Assembly (NCBI GenBank): GCA_964584035.1 | Contig: CAZOYL010000010.1 | Span: forward strand, 1-34,619 | From: an uncultured Gemmatimonadota bacterium | Lineage (GTDB): Bacteria > SM23-81 | Direction: 5' to 3' | Length of the DNA stretch: 34,619 bases | Part shown: positions 1,219 to 29,487 of the stretch, piece after piece | Position numbering within the stretch: the first letter of the stretch is position 1 | Layout: every line of letters starts with the position of its first letter | Notes under the pieces: generated by a model | What the model was told of the DNA's origin: nothing | Database searches by the model: none | The model's input: only the letters and a program-made list of their open reading frames with translations | Made by a program: the position numbers and the translations under genes

Positions 1219-1294
1219 ATTGGGCCGCCTCTCCGCCGGAGCATCGGTTTGGACTGGGCGGCCGCATCGAGCGGCACGGGCATCCGCGAGTGAC

Positions 1295-8972: not shown

Positions 8973-9026
8973 CGTTCCGGCCGCCTTGGATCAGCCGATG
9001 AAATGGTGTCGCCGGATTGAGAGCAT

Positions 9027-10163: not shown

Positions 10164-10178
10164 GATGAGGCTAAGATT

Positions 10179-11294
10179 TTGCGCATTCTGTTGATCAGCT
10201 CTCAAAAAAACTGGGGCGGGGGAGAGGCCTGGATGCTGTCAACGGCACTGGGCCTGGCTCGCCGGGGACACTCTGTCTCCCTGGTCTGTCAGCCGGGCAG
10301 TATGCTGGCCGGGCGCGCTCTTGCTCAGGGATTCCGGCCTGTGACCATAAGATTGCGGGGGGATTTTGATCCCATAGTGATCACCCGGTTATATCGGCTC
10401 ATCCGACGACGCCGAATTCAGCTGGTCTGCGGCAACATGGGCAAAGAGGTCCGCCTGGCCGGTGTCTCTGCCAGACTGGCAAAGATTCCCTTTATCCGCC
10501 GGCGGGGCAGTGACATGCGTTATCCAAACAGATGGCGCCATCGGCTGGTCGATCGCTGTCTGGTTCGTCTGATCATCGTCAACTCGCGAGCCACTCGGGA
10601 CACGTTGCTCCGGGGCAATCCCTGGCTGCCGCCGGAGAAACTGAAATTGATCTATAACGGAATACCCCTGTCTATGGATGGCGGGTCGGTCAACAGGGAT
10701 GAGGTGTTGAAGGAGTTCGGCCTGGAGAAGGCCGCTCCTCTTTTGGGTGTCGTCGGCCTGTTGAAGGAACGCAAAGGTCATGAGGTCTTATTCCGGGCCA
10801 TGCCGCAGATCCTGGAAAAATTCCCCCGGTTAGCCCTGCTGGTGGTCGGGGAGGGCGCCCTCAGAGGAAAATTAGAGGATCTGACGCACCGTTTGGGTAT
10901 CGCCCGTCATGTTCATTTCACGGGATTTCGCGACGATGTGCTTCCGTTGATGGAGGCCCTGGATATTCTGGTGCTGCCCTCCAAGAATGAGGGCTTCGGC
11001 TATGTTTTAGCAGAGGCCATGTCTTTGCGCAAACCGGTCGTGGCCAGCAGGATCAGCAGCATTCCCGAGGTGGTGTCGGAGGGGCGCACCGGATTGCTGG
11101 TGCCGCCCGGTGATATCGCAGCGCTGCGGGACGCCCTGCTCGATCTGGCCGGGGATCCCCAAAGAGCACAGCAGATGGGTTTGGACGGAAGGCGGCGGGT
11201 GGAACGGCTCTTTTCGCTGGAGCGTATGCTGGATGAAGTGGAGGACCTGTTCGGGAAGGTCATCAAGGAGGGCGGATTCAGGAGGGTTCTTTGA
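10179..11294 (+). CDS. Glycosyltransferase family 4
   Basis: WGGGE, IYNGI, ERKGH, EGFGYVLAEAM; TTG start. Confidence 0.92.
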   Translation: MRILLISSQKNWGGGEAWMLSTALGLARRGHSVSLVCQPGSMLAGRALAQGFRPVTIRLRGDFDPIVITRLYRLIRRRRIQLVCGNMGKEVRLAGVSARLAKIPFIRRRGSDMRYPNRWRHRLVDRCLVRLIIVNSRATRDTLLRGNPWLPPEKLKLIYNGIPLSMDGGSVNRDEVLKEFGLEKAAPLLGVVGLLKERKGHEVLFRAMPQILEKFPRLALLVVGEGALRGKLEDLTHRLGIARHVHFTGFRDDVLPLMEALDILVLPSKNEGFGYVLAEAMSLRKPVVASRISSIPEVVSEGRTGLLVPPGDIAALRDALLDLAGDPQRAQQMGLDGRRRVERLFSLERMLDEVEDLFGKVIKEGGFRRVL

Positions 11295-12165
11295 TCAGGA
11301 TATAATTCCTGTATTCCCCGATCACGGCATTCAGGATGTGGTTCTCGACAAAGGATAGCATCCGGTTGGACAGTTTATGATGACGGTGCTTGACACCAGG
11401 TTCGTCCTCGACTTGCCAGTCTTTGCGGGCGATGCGGGGGCCCATCACCCGGGGGTGGGTTCCTTGAAAACGGGCCAGGTGTTTCAGGGAGCCGTAGCGG
11501 AAGGAACTTTCTCTGTCGGGATGGCGCCGGTTGACCCATTGGGTGTCGTGGTGCAGGGAATCCAGGGCCACTTGCTTGCGCTTCATCAGCCGGGGATGAC
11601 GCACCCAGCCGTAATGATAGACCTTCGCGCCGCTGGGAACCACCTTGATTTTTTCTCCGTTTCGGCGGAAGCCCTGAGCGCTTTTCCATGATTCAATGCC
11701 CAGGCCGTTGCGGATCACCCGGACCTCATGGCGATACCAGCCGTGAGCCTTCTGATAGGTCTCATAGCTGCCCCAGAAATGGACATAGTCGAACAGCAGT
11801 CCCTCGATATTAGAATAGGGTTGACATCGCTCCATGGCGGCCCGAATGATGGGCAGATATTTTTCATGGATCACTTCATCGGCCTGGACGTAGAAACACC
11901 AGTCGCCCGAACATCGCGACAGAGCCAGGTTGGTCTGCTGAGCATTGATGGCGCCGTGAACGAAGTACTGCGGATCCCAGTCGCTCTCAATGAGGTGTAT
12001 TCTGGGATCGCCGATTCCCCGAATGGCCTCCGCCGTGCCATCGTCCGACCGTCCCACGGCCACCCAGAACTCATCGCAGATGGGCAAAATGGAGGTGATG
12101 GCCTCCACGATGGGGTAGTCGAGCCGCAATGCGTCCCGAACGAAACTGAAACCGCTGACGTTCAT
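11278..12165 (-). CDS. Glycosyltransferase family 2 (GT-A fold, LPS-related)
   Basis: SGFSFVR, YPIVEAI, SDDGT, QADE (DxD-like), YHYGWVR; GGAG RBS at 12171-12174. Confidence 0.85.
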   Translation of the reverse strand: MNVSGFSFVRDALRLDYPIVEAITSILPICDEFWVAVGRSDDGTAEAIRGIGDPRIHLIESDWDPQYFVHGAINAQQTNLALSRCSGDWCFYVQADEVIHEKYLPIIRAAMERCQPYSNIEGLLFDYVHFWGSYETYQKAHGWYRHEVRVIRNGLGIESWKSAQGFRRNGEKIKVVPSGAKVYHYGWVRHPRLMKRKQVALDSLHHDTQWVNRRHPDRESSFRYGSLKHLARFQGTHPRVMGPRIARKDWQVEDEPGVKHRHHKLSNRMLSFVENHILNAVIGEYRNYILIKEPS

Positions 12166-12197
12166 ATATTCTCCATGGTTGGGACCTGATGTCACCC

Positions 12198-12226
12198 AAA
12201 ATATGCTCTTCGGGCCGGGGGGTCAA
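12198..12226 (-). promoter_or_regulatory. sigma70-type promoter for antisense GT2 gene
   Basis: Minus strand TTGACC, 17 bp spacer, TATTTT. Confidence 0.55.
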
Positions 12227-12237
12227 GGAATTTCTTG

Positions 12238-13365
12238 ATGCAGAAGCGATGGCGCATATTGCAGCTGGTTGATGTCCGCTGGTGGAACGCCTGCGCCGAT
12301 TACGGAATCAGCCTGGCCCTTGGCTTACAACGCCGGGGTCAGCGGGTATTCGTGGCCGGAGAGAGAGGGAGCCCTCCTCTGACGCAGGCCCGGCGGCTGG
12401 GACTGCCGATCTACGAGAACCGGCTGGGACGGAGCGGACCGGCCGGCTGGATCTCCGATCTGACCGGTTTGATCGACTTCATCCGACGGGAAAAGATCCA
12501 GTTGCTGAACGCCCATCGGGCCGAGGGGCACCTTTTTTCCAGCCTGGCTTCTCTCCGGCTGGGCCGCCGCATTCCGGTGGTTCGCACCAGGGGCGATATC
12601 CGCCCGCCCAAAGGTCATCTGCTGAACCGCTGGCTCCATCTCCACCTGACCGACGCCCTGGTGCTGCCCAGTGAGGCATTGAAAGGCCCTGTCCTGGGGA
12701 AACTTCGTCGCTGGCCCCGGCAGTTTCAGGTCATTCCTCCGGGCGTCGATGCGGATCGTTTTGCCAGCCGCCGCTCTCCCTCGGCGGCTCGCTCACATCT
12801 GGGCTGGCCCAGCGAGGAACCCCTGGTGGGTGTGGTGGGACGGCTTTCGCCGGTCAAGGGTCTGGATATTTTTCTGCAGGCCGCTGCCCAGGTGGCTCGG
12901 TCGGTGCCCGGATCGAATTTCGTTCTGGTAGGAGGTGAAGCCCAGTTGAGCATCACGGACCTCCGCAGGTTGGCTCGAAAGTTGGGCATCGATCATCGGG
13001 TTCGCTTCATCGGGCAGGTTCAGGAGACGATTCCTTACATGGAGGCGTTCGATGTGGCGGTGGTGCCGTCGGTGGGGTCGGAAGCCATTTGCCGGGTCGC
13101 TCTGGAACACATGGCCATGAGCCGGCCGGTGGTCGGCACGCGGGTCAATGCCATTCCCGAGGTCGTGGTCCACGAACGAACCGGACTGCTGGTGCCGCCG
13201 GGCGATGCCCGGGCTCTGGCCCGGGCCATCGTGACGCTTCTGAAAAATCCGGACAGAGCCCATGCTATGGGTGAAGCCGGCCGGCGGCGGGTAGAGACAT
13301 CCTTCACGCTGGACCACCTTGCCTGCCGGACCGAAGATCTCTATAACCGGCTGCTGTCCGCCTGA
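12238..13365 (+). CDS. Glycosyltransferase family 4
   Basis: IPPGVD, GRLSPVKG, EAICRVALEHM (Ex7E). Confidence 0.9.
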   Translation: MQKRWRILQLVDVRWWNACADYGISLALGLQRRGQRVFVAGERGSPPLTQARRLGLPIYENRLGRSGPAGWISDLTGLIDFIRREKIQLLNAHRAEGHLFSSLASLRLGRRIPVVRTRGDIRPPKGHLLNRWLHLHLTDALVLPSEALKGPVLGKLRRWPRQFQVIPPGVDADRFASRRSPSAARSHLGWPSEEPLVGVVGRLSPVKGLDIFLQAAAQVARSVPGSNFVLVGGEAQLSITDLRRLARKLGIDHRVRFIGQVQETIPYMEAFDVAVVPSVGSEAICRVALEHMAMSRPVVGTRVNAIPEVVVHERTGLLVPPGDARALARAIVTLLKNPDRAHAMGEAGRRRVETSFTLDHLACRTEDLYNRLLSA

Positions 13366-13475
13366 CGAGGGGAGCTGCCGGAGTGATCGCCGCATCCCGG
13401 CGGTGGAGTCGATCGCGGCAGGGGGAGCGTTTTGCCGATGATGTGTCTGAAAGCAAGGTGAGAAAGGGCCCGTTG

Positions 13476-14735
13476 ATGGTTGTTTCTGAACGGAAGGAGA
13501 GCTGCGGTTCGATGTCGATCGCACCGCAGCCGTCCTCAGAGGTCGGCTGGAATCAAAAGATTGTCCTGACTGCCCTGTTGGGTTTCGCCTTTTTTTCACC
13601 CTGGTCCATCGCCGGGGCCCAGATCAGCCTGGGAGTGGGTCTGCTGACCTGGGTTGCGGGGCTGTTCAGTTCTGCTCGACGCCCGTTGGTGCGCTCTCCG
13701 CTGTTGTGGCCGGTGGCGGCCTATCTGGGATTTCAGCTTCTCTCGGTGCTGTTCAGTCCCGATCTCCTGACGGGTCTTCGGGCCTTTCGCGCCGAGTGGA
13801 TCATTCTGCTGTACTTTCTGGTGGTCAATATGGTCGAAGACGGCCGGTCGGTCCGCCGGCTGGCCGATGTCCTGGTGTTGACCACCGTCCTGGTCAGCCT
13901 GTATGCTATTTGGCAGCACTGGGCCGGCTGGGACCTGTATCGCCAGCGCCCTCTGCGTGCCACCGGGAGCGTGTTCGAGGCCACCGGCCTGTTCGGTCAC
14001 CATCTGACCTTTGGCGGATACATCATGATGGTGCTGATGCTCAGCGGCAGCCTGTTTCTTTTCGGATCCCGGAATCGTGCCAGGATATTCTACGGATTGA
14101 GCAGTCTGGTGCTGTTCCTGGCCCTGCTGTTCAGCTATGCCCGCAGCGCCTGGCTCGGATTTCTGGCCGGGACGCTGGCCGTGGCTATGGTCCGCGGGCG
14201 CCGGGCGCTGACCGTCATCCTGCCCGGCATCGCCGTGGTCATCGTGATGGCGGTTCTTCTGCTGCCGTCGGTGCGCGAACAGGCCGGGGAGATCGCCGGC
14301 CTGTTCGAGGATCCTATGTCCAAATCCTCCCGCCTGCAGATGTGGTCGGCCGCCTGGCGGCTGATCGGCGATCATCCTCTTCTGGGAGGGGGCAGTGGCC
14401 AGGCCGCCGGGCTGTTGCCCGGCTATGGTTGTGAGCTGGGTTATGCTCACATGCATAACGATCTTCTCAACGTTGCTGCGAATTCGGGTCTGCCCAGTCT
14501 GGCGGCCTTTGTGTGGATATGGGTGGTGCTTCTCCGTCTCACCGTCAGATGCCGCCGGAACCGCCGGTCAGGCCCCTGGTCTGCAGGCATGGCTGCCGCA
14601 GGATTCGGAATCGTGGTGGCCGTTCTGGTGGCCGGACTGTTCCAGTGTTATTACACCGATGCCGAAGACGGCATGCTCCTGTGGTTCTGTATGGGCCTGG
14701 TGGTCACCGTGTGCGCCCAAACTGAAAGGGCATGA
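13476..14735 (+). CDS. O-antigen ligase family (WaaL/Wzy_C) membrane protein
   Basis: About 11-12 TM segments; SYARSAW, SRLQMW, HPLLGGG, HMHNDLL motifs; start uncertain (13476 or 13512). Confidence 0.88.
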   Translation: MVVSERKESCGSMSIAPQPSSEVGWNQKIVLTALLGFAFFSPWSIAGAQISLGVGLLTWVAGLFSSARRPLVRSPLLWPVAAYLGFQLLSVLFSPDLLTGLRAFRAEWIILLYFLVVNMVEDGRSVRRLADVLVLTTVLVSLYAIWQHWAGWDLYRQRPLRATGSVFEATGLFGHHLTFGGYIMMVLMLSGSLFLFGSRNRARIFYGLSSLVLFLALLFSYARSAWLGFLAGTLAVAMVRGRRALTVILPGIAVVIVMAVLLLPSVREQAGEIAGLFEDPMSKSSRLQMWSAAWRLIGDHPLLGGGSGQAAGLLPGYGCELGYAHMHNDLLNVAANSGLPSLAAFVWIWVVLLRLTVRCRRNRRSGPWSAGMAAAGFGIVVAVLVAGLFQCYYTDAEDGMLLWFCMGLVVTVCAQTERA

Positions 14736-16892: not shown

Positions 16893-18641
16893 TTACCCGG
16901 TGGGAGGGGTCAGCGGCGAAGAGAACCAATCGAGTTGAATATGAGAGAAAATCTTGTCCCTTGCCTGGCATTCCCCCAGAAAGGTCCATTCACCGGGATC
17001 GACCCATTCGCCCCGGCCGTAACGCCCGGCCATGTCGGCCAGGCGATTGAAGATCTGATGGTGCTCGACCAAACGTAGTTCGGCATAATCCCGGGCCGAC
17101 CAGGTGCTGATCAGGAATTGCCAGTCGGAAGCCTCCAGCAGCAGCAGTTCGCGGGCCATCTGTTTGAGGATACTCTCAAGCTGTTCATCCGGATGTTTCC
17201 CCAGCTCTGCCAGCAGCGATGCGAAGCGGGCCTCGTCCTCATAGATATGTTTCCAGGTCCATTCGGTCCACTCATTTAGCCAGATATAGTGGTAGCCTCC
17301 CTGTCCCCAGGATCCTTCCGGCAGGGAAACGATTTCCGTCGGTGCCGCCTCGTCCAGATAATCGCCGCAGGTGGTCAGTTCGACCTCCTCATCCTGGTCC
17401 AGCAGGTCGAGGACCTTTCTCAGCCATTGGGGTCCTTCGAACCACCAGTGGCCGAAGAGCTCGGCGTCGAATGGCGCACAGACGATCCCCCGGCGGCCCG
17501 TCTGGCGATGGTATTCCCGAAGGCTGTCCTTCACCAGCTGGACGAAATGTTTGGCGTTCTCCGGAACTCGCCCGATGGCCCGGTCAGGATCATATTCCTC
17601 TTTTTCCGCCAGGTCGCTTCCCGGGCCGGTGACCCGCCAGTAACGGTGCCCCCCCGGATAGTGCTTCTTGTGGAAGTCAAGATACCATCCATCGCCAGGA
17701 TAGCCCCACTGACTGCTCCATACCTGCAGGCCGGTTTCCGCATCGCGCGTGAAAACAGCCACGGGTGAGCGGCTTTCCGTGGTGCCGCTGCCTACCAGGT
17801 AGATCTCCCGGGGCGTTCTCTCCTTTTCCTCGGGCCGTTCCTGATATTGGCTGGCGAACTGTTGCCATAAGCGGCGCAGGGATTCAAAACGATCGATATA
17901 GACGCCGATCGACTTGCCTCCCTTCAGCAGGGCAGAGTCCACGATAAAATATTCCAGACCGTTTTCAGCCAGGATCTGTTCGATGCCCCGCCGGGGGAAT
18001 TCTTCCGGGAGCACCGTGGTTTTCACCGGAGGGGACCATCGATACCCGGGCCGGTAAGCGCACTCCGGGAGCCAGATCCCCCGGGGCCGCTTTCCGAAGT
18101 GGCGGCGGTACGTTTCCACACCGACTCGAATCTGAAAGCCGACATTTTCATCGGTGCCCAGCAGTGGCAGATAACCGTGAGTGGCCGCGCAGGTGATGAT
18201 CTCCAGATGATGCTCATCCTGAAGTTTTTTAAAGGCGCCTATCAGATCCCGATGGTAACGGTTTTGGAAACTCTCCCGGATTCCGGCGTAATGATCGCGC
18301 CACCGGATGGCCAGATCAGCCAGTGAGGCGCGGTCCCACTGGCTGAAGGTGCGATGATCTTCTTCTGCGGCGTCGATCTTCTCGGTGAGATAGTGCTCGA
18401 ATTCCTCCTTGAAATCATCGTCCGCCAGCTGCTCACAGAGCACCGGCGTAAGCCCCAGCGTGAGCCGGGGCGAGCGGCCTTCCGCCAGCAGATCATTCAG
18501 CACGTTGAGCAGGGGAATATAGGTTTCGGCGGTGGCCTCGTTGAGCCAATCCATTCCGTGTGGCCAGCGGCCGTGGGCCATCACGTAAGGCAAGTGTGCG
18601 TGAAGGACGATGGTGAAACGGCCAATGAAATTTTTTTTCAT
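16893..18641 (-). CDS. GH57 1,4-alpha-glucan branching enzyme (DUF1957 C-terminus)
   Basis: HAHLPYV, ETYIPLL, THGYLPLL, GIWLPECAY (nucleophile Glu), FDAELFGHWWFEG (acid/base Asp), ELLLLEASDW; GGAGAGG RBS. Confidence 0.95.
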   Translation of the reverse strand: MKKNFIGRFTIVLHAHLPYVMAHGRWPHGMDWLNEATAETYIPLLNVLNDLLAEGRSPRLTLGLTPVLCEQLADDDFKEEFEHYLTEKIDAAEEDHRTFSQWDRASLADLAIRWRDHYAGIRESFQNRYHRDLIGAFKKLQDEHHLEIITCAATHGYLPLLGTDENVGFQIRVGVETYRRHFGKRPRGIWLPECAYRPGYRWSPPVKTTVLPEEFPRRGIEQILAENGLEYFIVDSALLKGGKSIGVYIDRFESLRRLWQQFASQYQERPEEKERTPREIYLVGSGTTESRSPVAVFTRDAETGLQVWSSQWGYPGDGWYLDFHKKHYPGGHRYWRVTGPGSDLAEKEEYDPDRAIGRVPENAKHFVQLVKDSLREYHRQTGRRGIVCAPFDAELFGHWWFEGPQWLRKVLDLLDQDEEVELTTCGDYLDEAAPTEIVSLPEGSWGQGGYHYIWLNEWTEWTWKHIYEDEARFASLLAELGKHPDEQLESILKQMARELLLLEASDWQFLISTWSARDYAELRLVEHHQIFNRLADMAGRYGRGEWVDPGEWTFLGECQARDKIFSHIQLDWFSSPLTPPTG

Positions 18642-18696
18642 GGTCACCTCTCCTGGGGCGATGCGCGAAAGGGAATGACATCATCAATGAGAATAG

Positions 18697-18729
18697 AAAA
18701 AAACAGGGCTGATGGACGGTATCAGCCCT
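18697..18729 (-). terminator. Intrinsic terminator-like hairpin between NucS-like gene and GH57 gene
   Basis: Minus strand AGGGCTGAT-accgtcc-ATCAGCCCT perfect 9-bp stem, then G and T7. Confidence 0.7.
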
Positions 18730-18758: not shown

Positions 18759-19337
18759 TCACAGATCGAAAGAGGATTCCATCTTCATGAATGAGGCGAT
18801 TTCCTCTTCGCCCAGTGGGATCATCGTCGATGGCAGGGAGATATCCTGCTCCAGCTGTTCCCCCGAGGATTCTTTATGCGTTGAGGAATTGGCATACTCG
18901 ATGAGCAGGCCGTTCTCATTATCAGACTGAAGCAGGCGAAGCCTGAACAGATCCACCGGGAGGTTTTCCAGGGCGGCCACGGCATCCTGGAAACAAGCGG
19001 AGAAATCCGGAGCCACCAGGATCAATCGGGGATGAACGAACAGATCCCTGGCCCTTTCTCCCAGCAGGGGCAGCATCTGATGCCGATACTGGTGGAACCA
19101 TCGCAGGTGTGATAGGCCTTCCACCAGCAGGTCATCCCGGGCCTGGGGAGCCACATCGATGATCACCGGCCGGCCGGTGGCGTCCACGCCCAGCAAATCC
19201 ATCGGCCCCCATTTTCCACGCCCTTTGCCGGGGTCGACCACCCGCAGGCCCTTCTCCAGAGCCTGCGAATTTTCAGCCACCATCAGGGCCAGGCGGTCTC
19301 TATCTTCCAGCGGCTTGCTGTTGAATACCTTGGTCAC
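18759..19337 (-). CDS. Hypothetical protein with degenerate NucS-like PD-(D/E)XK fold
   Basis: ALEKGLRVV...GPMDLLGVDATGRPVIIDV...PRLILVAPDF resembles the NucS C-terminal domain; GTG start in GTGA overlap with upstream stop. Confidence 0.65.
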   Translation of the reverse strand: MTKVFNSKPLEDRDRLALMVAENSQALEKGLRVVDPGKGRGKWGPMDLLGVDATGRPVIIDVAPQARDDLLVEGLSHLRWFHQYRHQMLPLLGERARDLFVHPRLILVAPDFSACFQDAVAALENLPVDLFRLRLLQSDNENGLLIEYANSSTHKESSGEQLEQDISLPSTMIPLGEEEIASFMKMESSFDL

Positions 19338-20281
19338 GTCGATGCCTCCAGAACCTGGCGGAGCGCTTGAAAAAAAGAGCGGTCCGTCTCTTCTCGAGCC
19401 CGCGGCTGTACCCATAACTTCTCTGCGATCTGTGAGAGACACTGAGCGGCCCTGGAGCTGGCGCGAGTCAGGGAGAGAGGCGTGCGCCGCAGAATGGATT
19501 TCTCGATGTTGACATCGGCAAGCAGGTAGCCCAGGTTGACGACCGTCACATTTAAGAATTCGTTCAGTGCGCGGGTCATCTGCTTGAAGATAGATTGAGC
19601 TTCCGATATCATCCGAACCTGATAGACGACGATGCCCAGCGTGATGTCCGGCCTGGTCGACAGGATGTTCTTGATGACGGCATAGGCATCCATCATTCCC
19701 AGGGGATCAGAGGGGACCATGACGACGATCTGGTGGGCCAGCCCGTGAATCAGACGGGCGTTCTCATGCACGGAGGCCGGCGTGTTTACCAGTATCATAT
19801 GGGCATCGGTCTCCAGTGATGTCAGCCCCGCCCAAATCCTTTCCCGGGCCGTCTCGGGAAGTTCCCTAAGATGACGAAGATCGATGTCCAGAGAGAGAAG
19901 TTTGACGCCCAGGGGTCCTTCGAGAATGACCTGTGGCTGTTGCCCGTTCTCTTCCTCGGCCAGGCGCGCCAGAGAATCGCCCGGCCGGCGGCCCCACAGG
20001 AAGGCTTGATCCGGAAAGCTGGAATCGGCATCCACGATCCTGATCCGTCGCCTGCGGCGGGAAAGTTCCACGGCCAAATTGCTGACCAGAAAAGATTTTT
20101 CCAGACAGCGGTGATCTCCTGTCACCGCCACAACGCGGGGAAACGGTTTGTCACTCTGGGAAGCATGCGGATTCTTCGGGGAATCCTCCTCCGGCTGTGA
20201 TGGCGGGGACGACTCCTCGGCCGACAGGAACAGGTGAGAGATGTCTTCCAATCCTTTTGCCAATCTTTTGTGATCTTTCAA
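19334..20281 (-). CDS. FlhG/MinD-like protein with degenerate P-loop
   Basis: VVAVTG...KSFLVSNLA, IVDAD, DAYAVIK, LGYLLAD features of FlhG/MinD; Walker A reads GDHRCLEKS; C-terminal SFFQALRQVL helix; TTG start. Confidence 0.8.
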   Translation of the reverse strand: MKDHKRLAKGLEDISHLFLSAEESSPPSQPEEDSPKNPHASQSDKPFPRVVAVTGDHRCLEKSFLVSNLAVELSRRRRRIRIVDADSSFPDQAFLWGRRPGDSLARLAEEENGQQPQVILEGPLGVKLLSLDIDLRHLRELPETARERIWAGLTSLETDAHMILVNTPASVHENARLIHGLAHQIVVMVPSDPLGMMDAYAVIKNILSTRPDITLGIVVYQVRMISEAQSIFKQMTRALNEFLNVTVVNLGYLLADVNIEKSILRRTPLSLTRASSRAAQCLSQIAEKLWVQPRAREETDRSFFQALRQVLEAST

Positions 20282-20297
20282 TTTAGTATGACTCTTT

Positions 20298-21386
20298 CTA
20301 TTGTTGGATCTCGACTATGGAGTTCTTGACCCCGTAGGGGGTGTCGACCGTGTGAGGATTGTGCGGATCCTCCATCCACTGGCCATCGACGATGAAGCGG
20401 TACTGGTACCTGCCCGGTTCCAGGGGCAATACAGCGGACCAGATGCCGTTGCCGTCGGGATCCAGATGAGCGGCCTCATCGGGCTGCCAGTCGTTGAAAT
20501 CACCGGCCACTCGAACCTGGCCGGCATCAGGAGCCAGCAGCCGCAGGTGGAGACCCTGTTCGGTAAAACAAGGCCCCAGAGGTTTGGCCATCGCTGAGGC
20601 TGGCCGGACCTGATATTGCCGATCCTGAGACTCTTCCAAAACTTCCTGAGCCAGGGCGGCATGGTCGCGATAACCGGCGCAGTGCCGGTCGTACTGGCAG
20701 ATGGGCTGGCCGAAACCGGTGGCCTCTCTGAGGCGGACATTGATCCCGATGGTGGTTCGAAACAGCCCCTTGCCAAAGTGGCGGCTCAACTCCTCGAGCA
20801 CCTCTGTGGCAATCTTGGTGCGGCGATCGAATATGGTCGCTGCCACCCGGACGTGTTTTCGCTGGCCGTAACGGTCGGCGATGAGTTTGATCGTCTCGCT
20901 GAGCTTGGCCAGCCCGTGCAGGGCAAAAAAACTCGTTTCGACCGGTACGATGATCTCCCGGCAGGCCCTGAGGGCGTTGAAGGTCAGCAGACCCAGACTC
21001 GGCGGGCAATCTACGATGACATAGTCATAGTCACGGGACAACTGCGCCAGGGCGATCAGCAGCCGGTCTTCCCGCCCGGGATGCCCGGCCAGCTCCTGTT
21101 CCACGGCGGCCAGCATGAGCCCGGAGGGGGCCAGATCCAGGCGCGGCCCCAGGCCCACGAGAATATCCTTCAAATCGGTGTCGGGGTGGTTCTCCGAGAG
21201 GACATGATAGAGGCCCCGGTCGACCTCGTCGGGTTGAACACCAACGCCCAGAGAAGCATGTCCCTGAGGGTCCAGGTCGATCAGGAGAACGCTCTGGTCC
21301 TTCTCGGCCAAACAGGCCGATAGATTGATGGCCGTGACCGTTTTTCCACAGCCGCCCTTCTGGTTGATGACCGCGATGGTTCTCAT
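20298..21386 (-). CDS. Soj/ParA-family ATPase fused to C-terminal CBM48 (AMPK-beta-like glycogen-binding) domain
   Basis: NQKGGCGKT, DLDPQG, IVDCPPSLG; residues about 278-362 carry VAGDFNDW...GIW...PGRYQYRFIVDGQW..DP.N...YGVKNS; AGGAGAGG RBS. Confidence 0.93.
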   Translation of the reverse strand: MRTIAVINQKGGCGKTVTAINLSACLAEKDQSVLLIDLDPQGHASLGVGVQPDEVDRGLYHVLSENHPDTDLKDILVGLGPRLDLAPSGLMLAAVEQELAGHPGREDRLLIALAQLSRDYDYVIVDCPPSLGLLTFNALRACREIIVPVETSFFALHGLAKLSETIKLIADRYGQRKHVRVAATIFDRRTKIATEVLEELSRHFGKGLFRTTIGINVRLREATGFGQPICQYDRHCAGYRDHAALAQEVLEESQDRQYQVRPASAMAKPLGPCFTEQGLHLRLLAPDAGQVRVAGDFNDWQPDEAAHLDPDGNGIWSAVLPLEPGRYQYRFIVDGQWMEDPHNPHTVDTPYGVKNSIVEIQQ

Positions 21387-21448: not shown

Positions 21449-21778
21449 CTATTCCCGTGGTTCCCCGGGACGTCCGGTCTGAAAACCGATCTCCGATCCT
21501 GGCTGCCCCTGTATCTTGATCTTTCCAAAGCGGTCTTCGAATTTCTCCAGGTTCTGCTCCAGAGCATTGCAGAGCATCTTGGCGTTCTGAGGCGTCATGA
21601 CGATACGGGCATAGACCTTTGTTTTCTTGATACCCGGCATAACCCGGGCAAAATCGATGAAAAATTCCGATGGCGAGTGGGCGATCAGGGCCAGATTGGA
21701 GTAAATCCCTTCCGATTCCTTCTCTCCCAGCTCTACCGAGATCTGATGGGGTCTTTTCTCCGGCATTTTTTTCTCCAT
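21449..21778 (-). CDS. DUF3467 family protein
   Basis: EGIYSNLALIAHSPSEFFIDF...ARIVMTPQNAKML...FE.RFG.I signature. Confidence 0.85.
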   Translation of the reverse strand: MEKKMPEKRPHQISVELGEKESEGIYSNLALIAHSPSEFFIDFARVMPGIKKTKVYARIVMTPQNAKMLCNALEQNLEKFEDRFGKIKIQGQPGSEIGFQTGRPGEPRE

Positions 21779-21814
21779 AGGTATGCCACCCTGTATGTTG
21801 TGCTGGCCGCTCGT

Positions 21815-21843
21815 AAAGTACATTCATTTTGTGGAAAAGTCAA
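21815..21843 (-). promoter_or_regulatory. sigma70-type promoter for the DUF3467 / ParA-CBM48 cluster
   Basis: Minus strand TTGACT, 17 bp spacer, TACTTT. Confidence 0.65.
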
Positions 21844-22042: not shown

Positions 22043-22170
22043 TAACCTTCGGGGCGAGGTGGAATTCCTCGACCGGCGGTGAAAGCCCGCGAACGATGAC
22101 ACACACCGGTGTGTGCTCGTGGAGCCGGTGAAATTCCGGCGCCGACGGCAAGAGTCCGGATGAAAGAAGG
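22043..22170 (+). ncRNA. FMN riboswitch (RFN element) aptamer
   Basis: CCTTCGGGGCGAGGTGGAATTCCTCGACCGGCGGT, AGCCCGCGA, CCGGTGAAATTCCGG, CCGACGG, AGTCCGGATGAAAGAAGG; P1 CCTTC/GAAGG; upstream of ribD. Confidence 0.96.
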
Positions 22171-22204
22171 TGCATCAGGAGGTGGAGTCCGTGCGTTTGT
22201 GATG

Positions 22205-22236
22205 GCCCCGGGGGATGTTCCTTTGGGGCTTTTTTT
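22205..22236 (+). terminator. Riboswitch expression-platform terminator
   Basis: GCCCCGGGGGA-tgt-TCCTTTGGGGC followed by T7, 4 nt before ribD ATG. Confidence 0.85.
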
Positions 22237-22240
22237 AGCG

Positions 22241-23323
22241 ATGGCTCAATACGATGATCAGCGATATATCCGCCTGGCCCTGCGCCTGGCCCGCAGGGGG
22301 CTGGGCATGGCTTCGCCCAATCCCTGTGTCGGCGCGGTGGTGGTCAGGAACGGCATCATCCTGGGACAGGGTTATCACCGGCGTCCGGGTGAGGACCATG
22401 CTGAAGTCCTGGCTTTACGGCAAGCCGGTCGAAAGGCTCGCGGATCGACCCTGTATGTCAACCTGGAACCCTGTTGTTTCCAGGGCCGGACACCTCCCTG
22501 TACAGAAGAGATACTGAGAAGGGGAGTGGCTCGGGTCGTCTGTGCTCAGGAGGATCCCAATCCCAGGGTCTCCGGTCGAGGGCTGGCCCGGCTGCGATCG
22601 GCCGGGGTCGATGTGTCCAGCGGCGTGATGGAGCAACAGGCCAGGGAGTTGAACGAGGCCTATGATAAGCATATCAGCACCGGCTGGCCGTTTCTGGTAG
22701 TCAAGATCGCGCAGACGCTGGATGGTCGCATCGCTACCCGGGATGGGGATTCCCGGTGGATCACCTCGTATCCGGCGCGGCGGTTGACCCATCGTCTGCG
22801 ATCGCAACTCGATGCCGTTCTGGTCGGTGCGGGGACGGTGCGCCGGGATGATCCCCGCCTGAATGTTCGCCATGGACGTGGTCGTGATCCGGTAAAAATC
22901 ATATTAGACAGCCGACTGCGGATACCTCTCCGGGCTCGCCTGTGGTCCGGCGGCAGGACCATCGTGGCCACCTGTGAGGGTGGCGATGAACATCAGATCC
23001 GGCGCTACCGAGACCTAGGGGCGGAGATTTGGGAATTCCCCCCCGATGCGGATGGCCGGGTGGATTTTGGGAAGTGTATCGAACGGCTCGGGCAGGAGGG
23101 CATCATCAGCGTTCTGGTGGAAGGTGGACAGAGAGTGTTCACCACGGCCCTGAAATCGGGGCTGGTGGATAAGATTGTCATCTGCCTGGCGCCCCGCCTG
23201 CTGGGCCGGGGGAAAAACGCTCTGGGCGATCTGGGCATCCGACGGATCGCCGATGCTCTGCCGGTCCGGGAACTGAAGGTTCGCCGCCTGGGACCGGATG
23301 TGATCATCACCGGCCGAATGTGA
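22241..23323 (+). CDS. ribD: Bifunctional diaminohydroxyphosphoribosylaminopyrimidine deaminase / reductase
   Basis: SPNPCVG, HAE, LEPCC...TPPC, TLDGRIA, VEGG; start at 22241, after the riboswitch. Confidence 0.96.
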   Translation: MAQYDDQRYIRLALRLARRGLGMASPNPCVGAVVVRNGIILGQGYHRRPGEDHAEVLALRQAGRKARGSTLYVNLEPCCFQGRTPPCTEEILRRGVARVVCAQEDPNPRVSGRGLARLRSAGVDVSSGVMEQQARELNEAYDKHISTGWPFLVVKIAQTLDGRIATRDGDSRWITSYPARRLTHRLRSQLDAVLVGAGTVRRDDPRLNVRHGRGRDPVKIILDSRLRIPLRARLWSGGRTIVATCEGGDEHQIRRYRDLGAEIWEFPPDADGRVDFGKCIERLGQEGIISVLVEGGQRVFTTALKSGLVDKIVICLAPRLLGRGKNALGDLGIRRIADALPVRELKVRRLGPDVIITGRM

Positions 23324-23330
23324 GGAGTAC

Positions 23331-23969
23331 ATGTTCACCGGCATCGTCGTGGAAACTGGAGTTGTTCGAGCGGTCCAGCGCATCCGCGGCGGCCTCAGTC
23401 TGACGGTCGCGGCTGAGCGGATTCCGCGGGGCCTGAAGCCCGGCGACAGCATCGCCATCGACGGGGTCTGCCAGACGGTCGTGGCCCTCGGCGATGACGC
23501 CTTTTCGGTCGAGGTCCTGCCGGAGACTCTGGGCCGAACCACGCTGGGGAGCATGCGCCGGGGCGACCGGGTGAATCTGGAACTGGCGGTGGGACCGGAT
23601 GATCGCTTCGGGGGTCATCTGATCACCGGACATGTGGACGGCCTGGGCATCATTCGTGCCCGCCGCCCCCGGACCGGCGATACCATCCTGAGGATCGACG
23701 CACCGGCCGGCATTCTAACTCAACTGGTGGAGCGGGGCTCGGTGGCCGTGGATGGTATCAGCCTGACGGTGGTATCGCTCTCCGGCAGCACGTTCACGGT
23801 GGCGCTTATCCCTCACACGTTGCGGACCACGACCCTGGCCGGCAGAAAAGTGGGCGATCGGGTCAATCTGGAGACGGACCTGATCGTCAAGGCCGTTCAT
23901 CGCTGGTTGGATCCCGGTCGCAATCGCGGTGAGTTAACCGAGGATCGTCTCAGACAGTTGGGTTTTTAA
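23331..23969 (+). CDS. ribE: Riboflavin synthase (alpha chain)
   Basis: MFTGIV N-terminus, [28 protein letters not shown]. Confidence 0.96.
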
Positions 23970-24000
23970 CCCAGGGTGTGATCAGAAACAAGAGGTTGTT

Positions 24001-25260
24001 ATGACCGGAAAACAGAAATCATCGGTCTTCGATTCCATCGAACAGGGGCTGGAGGATATCCGCCGGGGCAAAATGGTCATCGTGGTGGACGACGAGAGCA
24101 GAGAGAACGAGGGCGATTTCATCATGGCCGCCGAAAAGGTGACCTCTGAGTCCATCAATTTCATGGCCAAATATGGTCGCGGTCTCATCTGTATGCCCAT
24201 GACGGGTGAGCGGCTTGACCGCCTGGGTCTGTCCCCCATGGTCACGAAAAACACCGCCAAGCTGGGAACACCCTTCACGGTTTCGGTAGATGCCGTACAG
24301 GGCACGACCACGGGAATATCGGCTCAGGACCGGGCCGCCACCGTTCAAACCCTGATCGATCCGGCTTCTAAACCTGAGGACCTGGCCAAACCCGGGCATA
24401 TCTTCCCGCTCCGGGCCATGGAGGGGGGCATTCTTCGCCGGGCGGGGCATACCGAGGCGGCAGTGGATCTGGCCGTTCTGGCCGGCCTGATGCCGGCCGG
24501 TTTGCTGTGCGAGATCATGGCCGACGATGGAACCATGGCCCGGGTCCCCGAGCTGTTGGAGCTGAAGCCGCGCTTCGATCTCAAGCTCATTACTATCAAA
24601 GACTTAATCTTCTACCGGCGCCGCACAGAGAAGATGATTCGCCGGGTGGCGACCACCGGACTGCCCAGTCGATTCGGATCGTTCACCCTGCATCTGTACG
24701 AGGATATCATCACCGGAGATCACCACGTTGCCCTGGTCAAGGGTCAAGTGAAGGGTAAGAAGCGCATTCTCGTCAGAGTTCACTCTCAATGCCTGACGGG
24801 GGATCTGTTTGGATCATTGCGCTGTGATTGCGGAGATCAGATGGCCGAGGCTCTGCGGCGTATCGAGCAGGAGGGCAGCGGCGTTTTCCTCTATATGCGG
24901 CAGGAGGGCAGAGGCATCGGATTGGCCAATAAGCTGCGCGCCTATGAGCTTCAGGATCGGGGACGTGATACCGTTGAGGCCAATGAGGAGCTGGGCTTTG
25001 CTCCGGATCTGCGCGACTACGGCATCGGAGCGCAGATATTGGTCGACCTGGGACTTTCCACCATCCGGATCATGACCAATAATCCCCGTAAGATTACCGG
25101 CCTGGAGGGATACGACCTGGAGGTGGTCGAAAGGGTTCCGCTGCAGATCCCCCCCCGCCGGGAAAATGTCCGTTATCTTCAAACCAAGAGAAAAAAATTA
25201 GGCCATCTGCTGGACTTTACTGCCAAGGAATCCAGCCTGTCACAGGGGGAAAAGAGATGA
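24001..25260 (+). CDS. ribBA: Bifunctional DHBP synthase / GTP cyclohydrolase II
   Basis: [46 protein letters not shown]. Confidence 0.97.
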
Positions 25261-25736
25261 TCGTTCGCCAGGGGAAGTACAGTGCTTCCGGCAAGCGGTT
25301 TGCCATCGTGATCAGCCGTTTTAACGAGTTCATCACCGGCAAGCTTCTGGATGGAGCCGTCGATTGTTTGCAGCGGCACGGCGCCGAAGAATCGGATCTG
25401 GAGGTCTTCTGGGTTCCGGGAGCCTTCGAGATTCCTTATCTGGCCAAGAAACTGGCTGCGGCGGGAGGGCATCACGGCATTATCTGTCTGGGGGCCATTA
25501 TCCGCGGGGCCACTCCGCATTTCGATTATGTGGCCAGCGAGGTGGCCAAGGGCATCGCCCAGAGTGCGCTGGAAACGGGCCTGCCCGTGATCTACGGGGT
25601 GATCACGGCCGATACGGTCGAACAGGCCGTGGAACGAGCCGGAACGAAGGCCGGCAACAGGGGTTTCGATGCGGCCCTGGCCGCCATCGAGCTGGTCGAT
25701 CTGTACGGCTCGATATCTCGCCGGAAGAAGCGTTAA
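25257..25736 (+). CDS. ribH: 6,7-dimethyl-8-ribityllumazine synthase
   Basis: [26 protein letters not shown]. Confidence 0.97.
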
Positions 25737-25749
25737 GGGGATAGCCAGG

Positions 25750-26193
25750 ATGGGAAAGCGGCGAAAAGCTCGAGAACTGGCCCTGCAGGCTCTGTATGCT
25801 TTTGAGCTCTCGAGAGATCAGATCGATGGTATCCTGGAGACGATCCCCGATCGGGAGGACCTTTCCCAGGAGGTCGTTCAGTTCGCCGCATCCCTCAGCA
25901 GGACCGCGGTTGAGCATCTCGAACAAATCGACGATATCATCTCGCAGAGGGTCCAGCGATGGGAGCTTTCTCGCATCGCCATGGTCGATAAGACGATCCT
26001 GCGGTTGGCCGTCTGCGAACTGCTCTACTTTCCTGATATCCCCCAGAAGGTTTCGATCAACGAAGCCATCGAACTGGCCAAGGCTTATAGCACCGGGGAA
26101 TCGGGACGTTTTGTCAACGGTATACTGGATTCCATAGCCGGTCTGCACGGAGGCGGCGGGAATAAGCCGGCCGATGGGAAAAACGGCGGGTGA
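25750..26193 (+). CDS. nusB: Transcription antitermination factor NusB
   Basis: RRKARELALQALY, DKTILRL, INEAIELAK, FVNGILD; ribH-nusB adjacency. Confidence 0.95.
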   Translation: MGKRRKARELALQALYAFELSRDQIDGILETIPDREDLSQEVVQFAASLSRTAVEHLEQIDDIISQRVQRWELSRIAMVDKTILRLAVCELLYFPDIPQKVSINEAIELAKAYSTGESGRFVNGILDSIAGLHGGGGNKPADGKNGG

Positions 26194-27039: not shown

Positions 27040-29487
27040 ATGAGGATCGGCCAGATGAAAAACAGGAATCAGAACAGCTTCATCGGTTTTTTTATCGTCT
27101 CGGCCATCGTGCTGATCGTCTATGTCCGCACCATGGCGGCCTCGGTTTCATTCTGGGACTGCGGGGAATTTATCGCCTGTGCCCATATTCTGGGCGTTCC
27201 GCACCCCCCCGGAGCCCCTCTGTTCACGTTGCTGGGACGGATATTCAGCCTGATTCCGCTGTTTGAGACGGTGGCCCGGCGGGTAAATTTTCTCTCGGCG
27301 CTCAGCGGTGCCCTGGCGGCCGGGATGCTCTCGGTCGTCGTCCAGCGGATTTCCAGATCCTGGTTCGGGGCGGACCTTGGCTGGAAGGGTATGGCACTGT
27401 CCGTGGTCGGCGGAGTGACCGCCGGTCTGTGGATGGCCTTCAGCGACACTTACTGGTCCAATGCCGTGGAAACGGAGGTCTACGCTCCGGCCACCTTTTT
27501 GATGATCCTGGCCGTCTGGGTGACGCTTCGCTGGCGAGAGGTGCGGGCTCAATCCGGAGGCGATCACCTGTTTTTGCTGCTGGTATACCTTCTGTTTCTG
27601 GGTATCGGCATTCACTTGACGGTTTTTCTCATCGCTCCGGCGATCTTTTTCTTCATTCTGCTGGTCGACCCGGAGCGGTTGCGGGATTGGAGGTTCTGGT
27701 TGGTATCGGCCGCACTGGGGTCAGTCATCATCTCCATGGGCGAGACCTTTCTGATGGCCAGCGGTGCAGCGCTGGTGTTGAGCTTCGTCGGCATGCAGTG
27801 GGGATCCCCCCTGGGGCGTGCTCGCTGGCGCTTCTGTTTCTGGATGGCCGCCGTGGGGCTGCTGGCTTTTTCGGTCCAGGCCTTCATTCCCATCCGATCG
27901 GTGCTGAACCCCATCATCGACGAGAATGATCCGGACAACTGGAAGGCTTTCATGTACTATCTGGAAAGAAAACAGTACGGTCAGGAGAGTATGCTGACGC
28001 TGATGTTCCAGCGAAAAGGCACCTGGGCCAATCAGTTCGGCGTTCATGCCCACATGGGCTTCTGGGGATTTTTCCGGCAGGGGTGGGCTCCGGCAGCCTG
28101 GTGGCCGGCGGTGCTGGGCATCGGTCTGCTGGGGATGGTGATCGGCTGGTTTCGAGAACGGAAGGTCTGGTGGTATCTGCTGGTGATGATGATCCTGTGC
28201 AGCCTGGTCGTCGTTCTGTGGATGAATTTCTCGGACGGAACCCGCGGCGTACAGCTGGAGGTCAGGAATCGGGACTATTTTTTCACACCGACCTATGTGC
28301 TGTATTCCCTGTGGATGGGACTGGGGGTCAGCGGATTGCTCTGGCTGGTGGCGCGGAAATGGGGGAGTTGGTCCGGCCGGGTGATTTTCTGGATCCTGCT
28401 GGTCGCTTTGCCGATCGCCCCGCTGGGCACCATGGCCTATAATTATCATCGCCATGACCGCTCCGCAAACTTGATCGCCCGCAGTTATGCCTACAATCTG
28501 CTGAATTCCTGCGATCCGGATGCTCTTCTGTTCACCAATGGGGACAATGACACCTTTCCTCTGTGGTATCTGCAGGAGGTGGAGGGAGTTCGCCGGGATA
28601 TCCGGGTGGTGAATCTGAGCCTGCTGAACACGCCCTGGTATATCAATCAGCTCCGGGACCTGGAGCCCAGGGTCTTCCTGGATCTGACCGATGGTCAGAT
28701 CGACCGCCTCATGGCCGTCCGCCGGCGGGATGGAACTGTCATGAGGATTCAGGATCAGATGATCCAGAAGATCATTGAGGACAACGACTGGCGGCGGCCG
28801 ATCTTTTTTGCGGTCACCATCCCGGAGGAGAACCGTATCGGCCTGGACAATCATTTTCTCATGGAGGCCATGGTCTATCGCCTGCTGCCGGAAGAGCGGA
28901 CCGCTGTCATGGACCTGGAGCGGACCCGGAAAAACCTCACTGAGGTGTATCGATATGACAGCATGGGCGATCCCAATGTATACAAGGATGAAAACACCCA
29001 GCGGCTGCTCTACAACCTTTCTTCGGCCTTCATCAGCCTGGCCAACGAATACTACAATGCCGGCCGGAAGGAGGAGGCCGAGGCCCAGCTGCGACTGGCC
29101 ACCGAGGTGCTCACCGGGGACTGGCGTCCCCACGCCTTTCTGGCCGATATTTTAGGGAAAAAGGGAGAATATACTGTCGCTCTGGAGCAGATCCGTAAGG
29201 CCATTGTGTCCCAGCCGGATTTTTACATCCTCCATCGCATGTTGGGCAGTTACTCTGCCGCCCTCGGCGACACCGCGGGAGCTCTATCGGCCTATCGGGA
29301 GGCCTACCGGTTGAACGCCTCCGCCCGCCCGGTGGTCCTGGAGCTGGCCGAACTCTATCTGCGGAGCGGCCGGGTCCCGCAGGCCAGGACGCTCCTGCAG
29401 GAGTGGCTTGCTCAGCATCCGGAGGATACGGCTGCGGAGACGCTGTTGCAGCGCAGCACCATCCCGCCGGGAGCCGCGGGATCGTGA
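27040..29487 (+). CDS. DUF2723 (TMEM260-like) GT-C membrane protein with C-terminal TPRs
   Basis: WDCGEFI...LGVPHPPGAPLF, ETEVY, NGDNDTFPLWY, NLSLLNTPWY; multiple TM helices; TPR-like tail. Confidence 0.88.
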   Translation: MRIGQMKNRNQNSFIGFFIVSAIVLIVYVRTMAASVSFWDCGEFIACAHILGVPHPPGAPLFTLLGRIFSLIPLFETVARRVNFLSALSGALAAGMLSVVVQRISRSWFGADLGWKGMALSVVGGVTAGLWMAFSDTYWSNAVETEVYAPATFLMILAVWVTLRWREVRAQSGGDHLFLLLVYLLFLGIGIHLTVFLIAPAIFFFILLVDPERLRDWRFWLVSAALGSVIISMGETFLMASGAALVLSFVGMQWGSPLGRARWRFCFWMAAVGLLAFSVQAFIPIRSVLNPIIDENDPDNWKAFMYYLERKQYGQESMLTLMFQRKGTWANQFGVHAHMGFWGFFRQGWAPAAWWPAVLGIGLLGMVIGWFRERKVWWYLLVMMILCSLVVVLWMNFSDGTRGVQLEVRNRDYFFTPTYVLYSLWMGLGVSGLLWLVARKWGSWSGRVIFWILLVALPIAPLGTMAYNYHRHDRSANLIARSYAYNLLNSCDPDALLFTNGDNDTFPLWYLQEVEGVRRDIRVVNLSLLNTPWYINQLRDLEPRVFLDLTDGQIDRLMAVRRRDGTVMRIQDQMIQKIIEDNDWRRPIFFAVTIPEENRIGLDNHFLMEAMVYRLLPEERTAVMDLERTRKNLTEVYRYDSMGDPNVYKDENTQRLLYNLSSAFISLANEYYNAGRKEEAEAQLRLATEVLTGDWRPHAFLADILGKKGEYTVALEQIRKAIVSQPDFYILHRMLGSYSAALGDTAGALSAYREAYRLNASARPVVLELAELYLRSGRVPQARTLLQEWLAQHPEDTAAETLLQRSTIPPGAAGS

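Follow-up and report, generated by a model that had tools for sequence, protein, structure and literature searches.

The ParA-CBM gene and its domains

The window analysed here is the whole 34,619-nucleotide stretch of contig CAZOYL010000010.1 (GenBank assembly GCA_964584035.1) from an uncultured Gemmatimonadota bacterium. On its minus strand lie, in this order, genes for a DUF3467 protein, for a ParA/Soj-type ATPase fused to a C-terminal carbohydrate-binding module (CBM), for a second ParA with a degenerate nucleotide-binding motif (the dead ParA), for a nuclease-like protein of 227 amino acids and for a GH57 enzyme; the cluster lies between relA/spoT and the ribD riboflavin operon. The fusion protein, which we call ParA-CBM, is the subject of this study. 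An earlier note, made from the letters alone, had described both of its domains as apparently functional and had suggested that it could either bridge DNA and alpha-glucan or let glycogen status modulate a Soj-like cell-cycle function. At the level of sequence the domain assignment stands, while the cell-cycle role has become less likely, and the analysis adds what that note did not contain: the partner genes, the GH57 neighbour and membership of a large family whose architecture had been reported in a preprint of 2026. The features of the gene are as follows.

20298..21386, minus strand: ParA-CBM48 gene, a 362-amino-acid open reading frame matching Pfam AAA_31, AMPK1_CBM and CBM_48; predicted orphan ParA-type ATPase with a C-terminal glucan-binding module
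20610..21386, minus strand: ATPase domain, amino acids 1-259, with deviant Walker A KGGCGKT, Walker A' D37/D39, Walker B D126 and basic residues R189/R218/R220
20571..20609, minus strand: flexible linker, amino acids 260-272, between ATPase and CBM, disordered in the AlphaFold2 (AF2) model
20304..20570, minus strand: CBM48/AMPK-beta-type module, amino acids 273-361, with W300, R330, W337, Y351 and N355

A Pfam scan, one of the checks that the earlier note had named, placed all three families above their cut-offs: AAA_31 over amino acids 1-173 (E 2.9e-50, 171 bits against a cut-off of 27), AMPK1_CBM at amino acids 288-361 (E 2e-13, 50.8 bits against 26.8) and CBM_48 at amino acids 269-336 (E 1.4e-9, 38.6 bits against 22.4), with CbiA, MipZ and related families also matching the N-terminal part. 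The ATPase motifs KGGCGKT (amino acids 10-16), DLDPQG (37-42) and the Walker B segment VIVDCPP (123-129), all of them reported as intact in that note, are present in both the translation and the alignment, and they make up a complete site of the deviant Walker A type for ATP binding and dimerisation. The closest solved match to the ATPase part was 8ray_B, a ParA family protein (E 3.4e-53), with 1wcv and 6iub also close; chromosomal ParA/Soj structures matched at E 1e-40 to 1e-53. The segments FDRRTK (amino acids 186-191) and INVRLREA (215-222) had been said to carry the equivalents of Soj R189 and R218, and the alignments agree: R189 and R218 of ParA-CBM line up with the Arg of 'FDSR' and 'NVRL' in the canonical ParA of the same genome and coincide with these motifs in solved Soj/ParA structures. 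In Bacillus subtilis Soj, R189 and R218 are non-specific DNA-binding residues (PMC3778016).

The C-terminal part was likewise found to hold every motif of the AMPK-beta glycogen-binding pattern that had been proposed for it, namely GDFNDW (amino acids 295-300), YRF (329-331), DGQW (334-337) and YGVKN (351-355), in addition to its Pfam matches above gathering score. Its closest solved matches were the CBM chains of AMPK beta1 and beta2 (E about 7e-9, about 30% identity over about 70 residues), and in this alignment the two Trp, the Lys/Arg and the Asn of the AMPK beta CBM are matched by W300, W337, R330 and N355. W300, R330, W337 and N355 thereby correspond to W100, K126, W133 and N150, the glucan-contact residues of the AMPK module. 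The AF2 model (mean predicted local distance difference test score, pLDDT, of 83) has two folded domains, of which the CBM is a beta-sandwich, joined by a disordered stretch at amino acids 260-267 where pLDDT falls below 50. Relatives differ widely in linker length; in L082 and L057 it extends to as many as several hundred residues, those of L082, ahead of the CBM, being acidic.

ParA-CBM is a second, specialised ParA of its organism, since the same genome has a separate canonical rsmG-parA-parB locus on another contig (C27), the ParA of which is 43% identical to amino acids 2-250 of ParA-CBM. The genome's ParB_N matches lie on contigs C27 and C247, with none at the ParA-CBM locus, and ParA-CBM scores 101.7 bits against the NCBIfam ParA_partition equivalog cut-off of 180, that is, below it. 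The separate rsmG-parA-parB locus, together with the dedicated partner genes of ParA-CBM, is what makes modulation of a Soj-like cell-cycle function by glycogen status the less likely of the two roles first suggested.

Extent and conservation of the family

The fusion is real and not a product of assembly, a possibility that the earlier note had left standing. PF13614 and PF16561 occurred together in all 120 homologues listed, with full-length coverage and identity down to 46%, and a scan of one genome per species gave at least 595 matching stretches, of which at least 589 were confirmed relatives. The domain junction is moreover bridged by contigs from two public sequencing runs. One, at window positions 20182-20760, is from run X1, possibly the source sample itself; the other, at 19988-21301, is from run X10 and derives from a relative about 90% identical. 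An RNA-library contig (X22) from a relative about 92% identical covers 20693-21368, and is not evidence that the window gene itself is transcribed.

The ParA-CBM family is widespread, with representatives in at least 589 species of Omnitrophota, Planctomycetota, Myxococcota, Desulfobacterota, Nitrospirota, Zixibacteria-like bacteria and other phyla. The alignment, tree and neighbour counts given below rest on a comparison set of 81 proteins, made up of 80 of the at least 589 loci and the window. The CBM was present in 75 of these 81; L013, L018, L019, L060 and L077 are without it, and L058 ends at a contig edge. Three of the CBM-less relatives (L013, L018 and L019) keep a partner with the N-terminal peptide described below, and L018 and L019 also have a nuclease-like gene. 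Within the window's own phylum, a full-length copy was found in five of six genomes that were at least 80% complete. One relative genome (G004) has two ParA-CBM genes, the second of which (L102, identical with L011) has no partner genes and is followed by a 622-amino-acid protein with a C-terminal sorting domain of the type IX secretion system (T9SS) type.

Residues expected to matter for ATP, DNA and glucan binding were kept almost throughout. K10, K15 and T16 were found in 80 of 81 proteins, the remaining row being gapped at these positions, and D37, D39 and D126 in all 81; R189 was kept in 79, with K/R at position 218 in 77 and at position 220 in 74. Among the 75 proteins with a CBM, W300 and W337 were each conserved in 74, R/K330 in 70 and N/D355 in 73. 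The Cys of KGGCGKT, present in 79 of 81, is a family signature. At the level of sequence, this conservation of catalytic, DNA-contact and glucan-contact residues supports the description of both domains as apparently functional.

The CBM is nearly as well conserved as the ATPase, their mean pairwise identities being 40.5% and 47%, respectively (2775 pairs among 75 full-length proteins). Between genomes of the same family, ParA-CBM was 64% identical, the dead ParA 54%, the nuclease-like protein 49%, GH57 72% and RibD 58%, from which it follows that ParA-CBM evolves like a housekeeping gene and its partners faster; between families of the window's phylum, the dead ParA falls to 26% identity, against 50% for ParA-CBM. 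On a quick tree of the family, phylum labels changed 23 times, compared with a mean of 38.8 for shuffled labels, and none of 200 shuffles gave a count as low. Inheritance of ParA-CBM is mostly vertical.

Partner proteins and gene neighbourhood

The remaining features of the cluster in the window are these.

21449..21823, minus strand: DUF3467 protein (Pfam), 124 amino acids; conserved upstream neighbour in the window's phylum only
19334..20281, minus strand: partner 1, a dead ParA/MinD paralogue of 315 amino acids with weak CbiA and MinD_arch matches and no GK[ST] at the P-loop position
20222..20269, minus strand: N-terminal peptide of partner 1, amino acids 5-20, KRLAKGLEDISHLFLS; better conserved than any other part of this protein, similar to a ParB N-terminus
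18759..19442, minus strand: partner 2, a protein of NucS/EndoMS-like PD-(D/E)xK fold, 227 amino acids, start uncertain; fold matches, without the catalytic Lys
18705..18729, minus strand: terminator-like hairpin (stem of 9 bp, then a T-run) that separates GH57 from the nuclease-like gene
16893..18647, minus strand: GH57 1,4-alpha-glucan branching enzyme, 584 amino acids (Pfam Glyco_hydro_57 and BE_C); conserved downstream neighbour

The gene of the dead ParA follows that of ParA-CBM after a gap of 16 nucleotides, and the Walker A lysine motif GK[ST] is absent from 20 of 20 aligned members of this partner. The nuclease-like protein matches the NCBIfam NucS model (E 2.6e-4) and the nuclease-domain fold of EndoMS/NucS (5gke_A, E 3.2e-5; 2vld_A, E 7.5e-5; range 3e-5 to 1e-4), and in the alignment it is devoid of the Lys of (D/E)xK. 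Where it is encoded by a separate gene behind the dead ParA, it carries a C-terminal L[ST]xEE[IV]xxF-like motif, which is missing from the two-gene form. The motif is confined to nuclease-like proteins that form a polypeptide of their own, apart from the dead ParA. Docking within the system fits this distribution better than a sliding-clamp or PIP-type motif does; the latter reading was therefore dropped, and the motif presumably serves docking.

Apart from its near-invariant N-terminal peptide, the dead ParA is not strongly conserved and drifts to 25-30% identity. The family consensus of the peptide is K-x-LG[RK]GLED[IV]SHLFLS (window form KRLAKGLEDISHLFLS), and we call it ParB-like because the LG[RK]G[LI] core is common to its extreme N-terminus and that of the ParB of the same genome, MARKALGRGIGAIIP. 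ParB N-termini are established stimulators of ParA. A profile of the peptide scored at least 8 bits in 32 of the 81 loci, in 31 of them on the same strand and directly downstream of the ParA gene; the remaining match (L074) lies on the opposite strand and is probably due to chance. The peptide is found on three kinds of protein. It is carried by the dead ParA, by a nuclease-like protein on its own (two-gene loci, among them L023, L024, L027, L033 and L035) and, in Phycisphaerae (L051, L055, L061 and L062), by a fusion of dead ParA and nuclease-like protein of about 500 amino acids. When the profile was run against 1.84 billion cluster representatives, it found 143 proteins at E <=1e-3, with the peptide within the first 86 residues in all but one. 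These comprised 45 nuclease-like proteins, 39 dead ParAs, 11 proteins that were both, 37 fragments of less than 150 amino acids and 11 others; 95 of the 106 carriers of at least 150 amino acids were therefore dead ParA and/or nuclease-like.

Profiles were needed for the partners because of their fast divergence, tblastn with the partners from the window having found few loci. A homologue search with partner residues 1-40 returned only the query from 3 candidates, the search using a word index that is unsuited to a 16-residue motif. A predicted complex of the ParA ATPase dimer with ATP/Mg and partner residues 1-45 scored 0.02 and was used neither way. Behind the peptide, at window positions 20177-20185, the contig from run X10 has a 1-base insertion and a 1-base deletion 8 nucleotides apart in a low-complexity stretch, the frame being restored after three codons.

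One of the 11 other carriers, P0303, is a DUF4912 protein that also matches glucodextranase-B weakly, and a further DUF4912 protein with the partner peptide (L014:11725-13608, plus strand) lies directly ahead of a GH57 gene. DUF4912 may be a glucan-associated adaptor of the ParA-CBM system. It was not found in the window's genome, and a search for it in print gave nothing relevant.

Genes within 5-6 positions of the ParA gene at the 81 loci were clustered and then annotated. GH57 was found at 12 loci, phosphoglucomutase (PGM) at six, which form one clade on the tree, and GH15 at one (L032). The dead ParA was detected at 14 loci by BLAST clustering and at 35 by a profile that includes the peptide, and the nuclease-like protein at 13 and 21 loci, respectively. 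An unannotated membrane protein of about 190 amino acids lies directly upstream in 17 loci, and a MerR gene in seven. As the nine loci with GH57 two genes upstream are a single clade, there are about four separate settings in which GH57 adjacency arose or was retained, namely L014, L022, the clade of the window and that of Omnitrophota type. Of the 232 remaining neighbours of at least 180 amino acids, 223 were scanned with Pfam and nine, each longer than 1000 amino acids, were dropped. Almost all of the 223 were housekeeping genes, and conflict-type domains occurred in three: AAA_14/DUF4143 in L014, Fic in L062 and PT-HINT in L079.

Five relative loci from the window's phylum (L101-L105) were fetched for closer comparison. 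DUF3467 and the dead ParA flank ParA-CBM in L101, L103, L104 and L105, and DUF3467 was not found upstream of ParA-CBM at the 80 loci from other lineages. GH57 is present, beside relA and ribD, at L101 and L105 and absent from L104, and the contig of L103 ends before that position. The second copy mentioned above (L102) has none of the three neighbours DUF3467, dead ParA and GH57.

A different arrangement recurs at Omnitrophota-type loci (L021, L025, L028, L036, L041, L045 and others), where the order is GH57, a membrane protein of about 190 amino acids with the conserved N-terminus DIYEHLAKIYLDASS, ParA-CBM, a 108-amino-acid membrane protein and a protein of 130-140 amino acids that combines a very lysine-rich N-terminal half with an EF-Tu-domain-2-like barrel. 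The ISHLFLS-type peptide was not found at these loci. That DIYEHLAKIYLDASS is a variant of the partner peptide is offered here purely as an idea.

The GH57 protein of the window matches NCBIfam branching-enzyme models at E 7e-166, below the equivalog cut-off. The hairpin ahead of its gene is a consensus match only, and terminator-like sites are no commoner in the region than in shuffled sequence. The organism makes glycogen, GlgA and several GH57 genes being present in its genome, and it appears to be rich in alpha-glucan proteins. Further CBM48-like segments were seen in the same genome on contigs C164, C6, C215, C90 and C22, among them three on C164, one of which adjoins a GH57 match, and two within an 860-amino-acid frame on C6.

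The rest of the window is ordinary chromosome. The riboflavin operon, ribD-ribE-ribBA-ribH-nusB, occupies 22109-26193 (plus strand); a glycosyltransferase/O-antigen-ligase cluster lies at 7884-14735, ComEC at 1220-3811 and a TMEM260-like mannosyltransferase at 27040-29487. A 560-amino-acid open reading frame at 31641-33323 (plus strand), in a region of cell-envelope glycosyltransferases, has no Pfam match at E 1e-5.

Interpretation and comparison with known systems

The explanation that we favour, and which we judge to be evenly poised between right and wrong, is that ParA-CBM is an orphan ParA-type ATPase dedicated to the alpha-glucan (glycogen) store and that it tethers glycogen to the nucleoid. 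Somewhat less confidently, we propose that the family is a widespread ParA-driven partition or tethering machine for a polysaccharide store, in which CBM48 would grip glycogen while a ParB-like peptide on a chromosome-reading adaptor of dead ParA and dead nuclease would set the cycle. Many copies of ParA-CBM could sit on a glycogen particle through their CBM, and in the ATP-bound state ParA-CBM would dimerise and hold the nucleoid. Glycogen would in this way be tethered and spread along the chromosome rather than collecting at the poles, and both daughter cells would inherit it. The dead ParA would act as the regulator, its ParB-like N-terminal peptide probably triggering ATP hydrolysis and release, and would work with the dead NucS-like protein, which probably binds DNA and is fused to it in some phyla; in other phyla, it is the nuclease-like protein that bears the peptide. 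The adjacent GH57 branching enzyme would tie the system to glycogen synthesis. We infer all of these steps: that the protein binds glycogen and DNA, that the peptide stimulates it and that glycogen is shared out along the nucleoid. The idea of a bridge between DNA and alpha-glucan, already raised in the earlier note, agrees with the conserved residues and with the GH57, PGM and GH15 neighbours. Such a tether could be useful given that polar glycogen skews nucleoid position and division in Escherichia coli, where glycogen has been described to gather at the old pole, displace the nucleoid and cause asymmetric division (PMC12706056).

Several observations weigh against a glycogen tether. No glycogen genes were found within 5-6 genes of ParA-CBM at about 60 of the 81 loci, including all 21 from Phycisphaerae, and co-transcription of GH57 in the window is uncertain because a terminator-like hairpin separates it from the nuclease-like gene. 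The five CBM-less relatives (L013, L018, L019, L060 and L077) keep partner genes or family membership, so the core machine is not strictly tied to glucan. The dead nuclease has no obvious role in granule positioning and is the least explained part under every reading; it also matches the PADLOC candidate-defence model PDC-S18 (E 1e-10). ParA systems normally leave cargo binding to the partner, and a ParA that is itself equipped with a cargo-binding domain is unusual. Finally, the only published reading of ParA-CBM, given in a preprint, is one of immunity.

That preprint (bioRxiv 10.64898/2026.10.19.760177, October 2026) was the sole relevant item in a literature search that found no experimental paper on a ParA-CBM48 protein. 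Its relevant passages describe a 'ParA-CBM system', branch ConB5, in which ParA is fused to AMPK1_CBM, with one variant that adds an upstream single-pass membrane protein and a second that adds an inactive second ParA and an inactive restriction endonuclease (REase), and they propose an immune role from rapid CBM divergence and sporadic distribution. The system would on this account sense carbohydrate in a conflict. Infection would be signalled to the CBM by, for instance, glycosylated parts of virions, fragments of the cell wall or the depletion of glycogen; ParA would then multimerise on nucleic acid and so block the invader, with the dead nuclease as DNA sensor. The locus in the window has precisely the composition of the second variant, with a C-terminal AMPK1_CBM on ParA, a dead ParA and a dead NucS-like nuclease, and an immune role would also accommodate the PDC-S18 match, the several modular variants of the system, the mixing of phylum labels in some clades and the fast evolution of the partners (between families of the window's phylum the dead ParA is 26% identical and ParA-CBM 50%). 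The two grounds on which it was proposed are, however, not what we observed in the 81-locus sample. The CBM is not fast-evolving (40.5% against 47%) and its glucan-contact residues are near-invariant, a pattern suited to a constant self ligand; five of six genomes of the window's phylum are syntenic at this locus, beside relA and ribD, and phylum labels cluster on the tree. Moreover, ParA-CBM and the dead ParA have no PADLOC match, the neighbours are housekeeping genes rather than defence islands (conflict-type domains in three of 223 scanned), and glycogen enzymes recur among them. We therefore regard an immune function as quite unlikely.

It is also conceivable, if fairly unlikely, that the protein is a glycogen-anchored regulator or scaffold that positions nothing. 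The CBM would then park an ATP-dependent switch on glycogen, where it would recruit or control enzymes such as GH57 or report the size of the store to another process, an arrangement similar to that of AMPK-beta, PTG or laforin on eukaryotic glycogen. The Pfam, AMPK-alignment and conservation evidence for the domains serves this explanation equally well, as does the adjacency of GH57, PGM and GH15, and the peptide on DUF4912 proteins (L014, beside GH57, and P0303) suggests recruitment of glucan-related proteins to the ATPase. Yet a pure glycogen-bound switch would not need the DNA-contact residues that the family has kept (R189 in 79 of 81, a basic residue at 218 in 77 of 81), and most of the partners (95 of 106 carriers) are dead ParAs or nuclease-fold proteins, not enzymes of glycogen metabolism. 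By far the least probable explanation is an ordinary partition Soj/ParA with an extra domain, or else an artefact of assembly or gene calling. An ordinary Soj would be in keeping with the close resemblance to structures of chromosomal ParA/Soj (E 1e-40 to 1e-53) and with the label 'chromosome partitioning protein' given to relatives in their sources, but this is contradicted by the canonical parA-parB elsewhere in the genome, the lack of a ParB_N gene at the locus and the low ParA_partition score (101.7 bits against 180), just as an artefact is contradicted by the conserved fusion (120 of 120 homologues listed and at least 589 genomes) and the independent contigs that bridge the junction.

ParA/MinD ATPases position DNA, protein organelles and protein arrays. 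If the glycogen tether is correct, a ParA that holds polysaccharide directly would extend this positioning to carbon stores and would make the sharing of glycogen between bacterial daughter cells testable. The conserved 16-residue partner peptide and the dead-ParA/dead-nuclease adaptor offer concrete handles for biochemistry, and the glycogen reading provides a testable alternative to immunity as proposed in the only paper on the family. The passages of that preprint on ParA-CBM systems make no mention of the partner N-terminal peptide, of the dead-ParA/nuclease fusion or of a link to GH57 and PGM, and our 81-locus sample differs from its account in the conserved CBM, the housekeeping synteny and the recurrence of glycogen enzymes.

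With chromosomal ParA/Soj (type Ib deviant Walker A; 8ray, 1wcv, 6iub) ParA-CBM has in common the fold, the nucleotide-binding motifs and the positions of the DNA-contact Arg, and its partner has a ParB-like N-terminal LG[RK]GL peptide; it differs in the extra CBM48 and the Walker A Cys, in a locus without ParB or parS and in a partner made up of dead ParA and dead nuclease. With the CBM of AMPK beta (CBM48; 1z0m, 2f15) it shares the module and its Trp-Trp-Lys/Arg-Asn contact set, here attached to a bacterial ParA ATPase rather than to a kinase scaffold. McdA/McdB and other orphan ParA positioners, which serve carboxysomes and chemoreceptor arrays, have a dedicated small partner, use the nucleoid as presumed matrix and work beside canonical ParAB; in McdA/McdB-type systems the partner binds the cargo, which is a protein assembly. 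McdA structures match ParA-CBM at E about 4e-10, but ParA-CBM itself carries the cargo-binding domain and its cargo would be a polysaccharide. PhaM of polyhydroxybutyrate (PHB) granules is unrelated and lacks an ATPase cycle, but it embodies the same functional idea, in that by binding DNA as well as the storage granule this one protein lets daughter cells share the granules.

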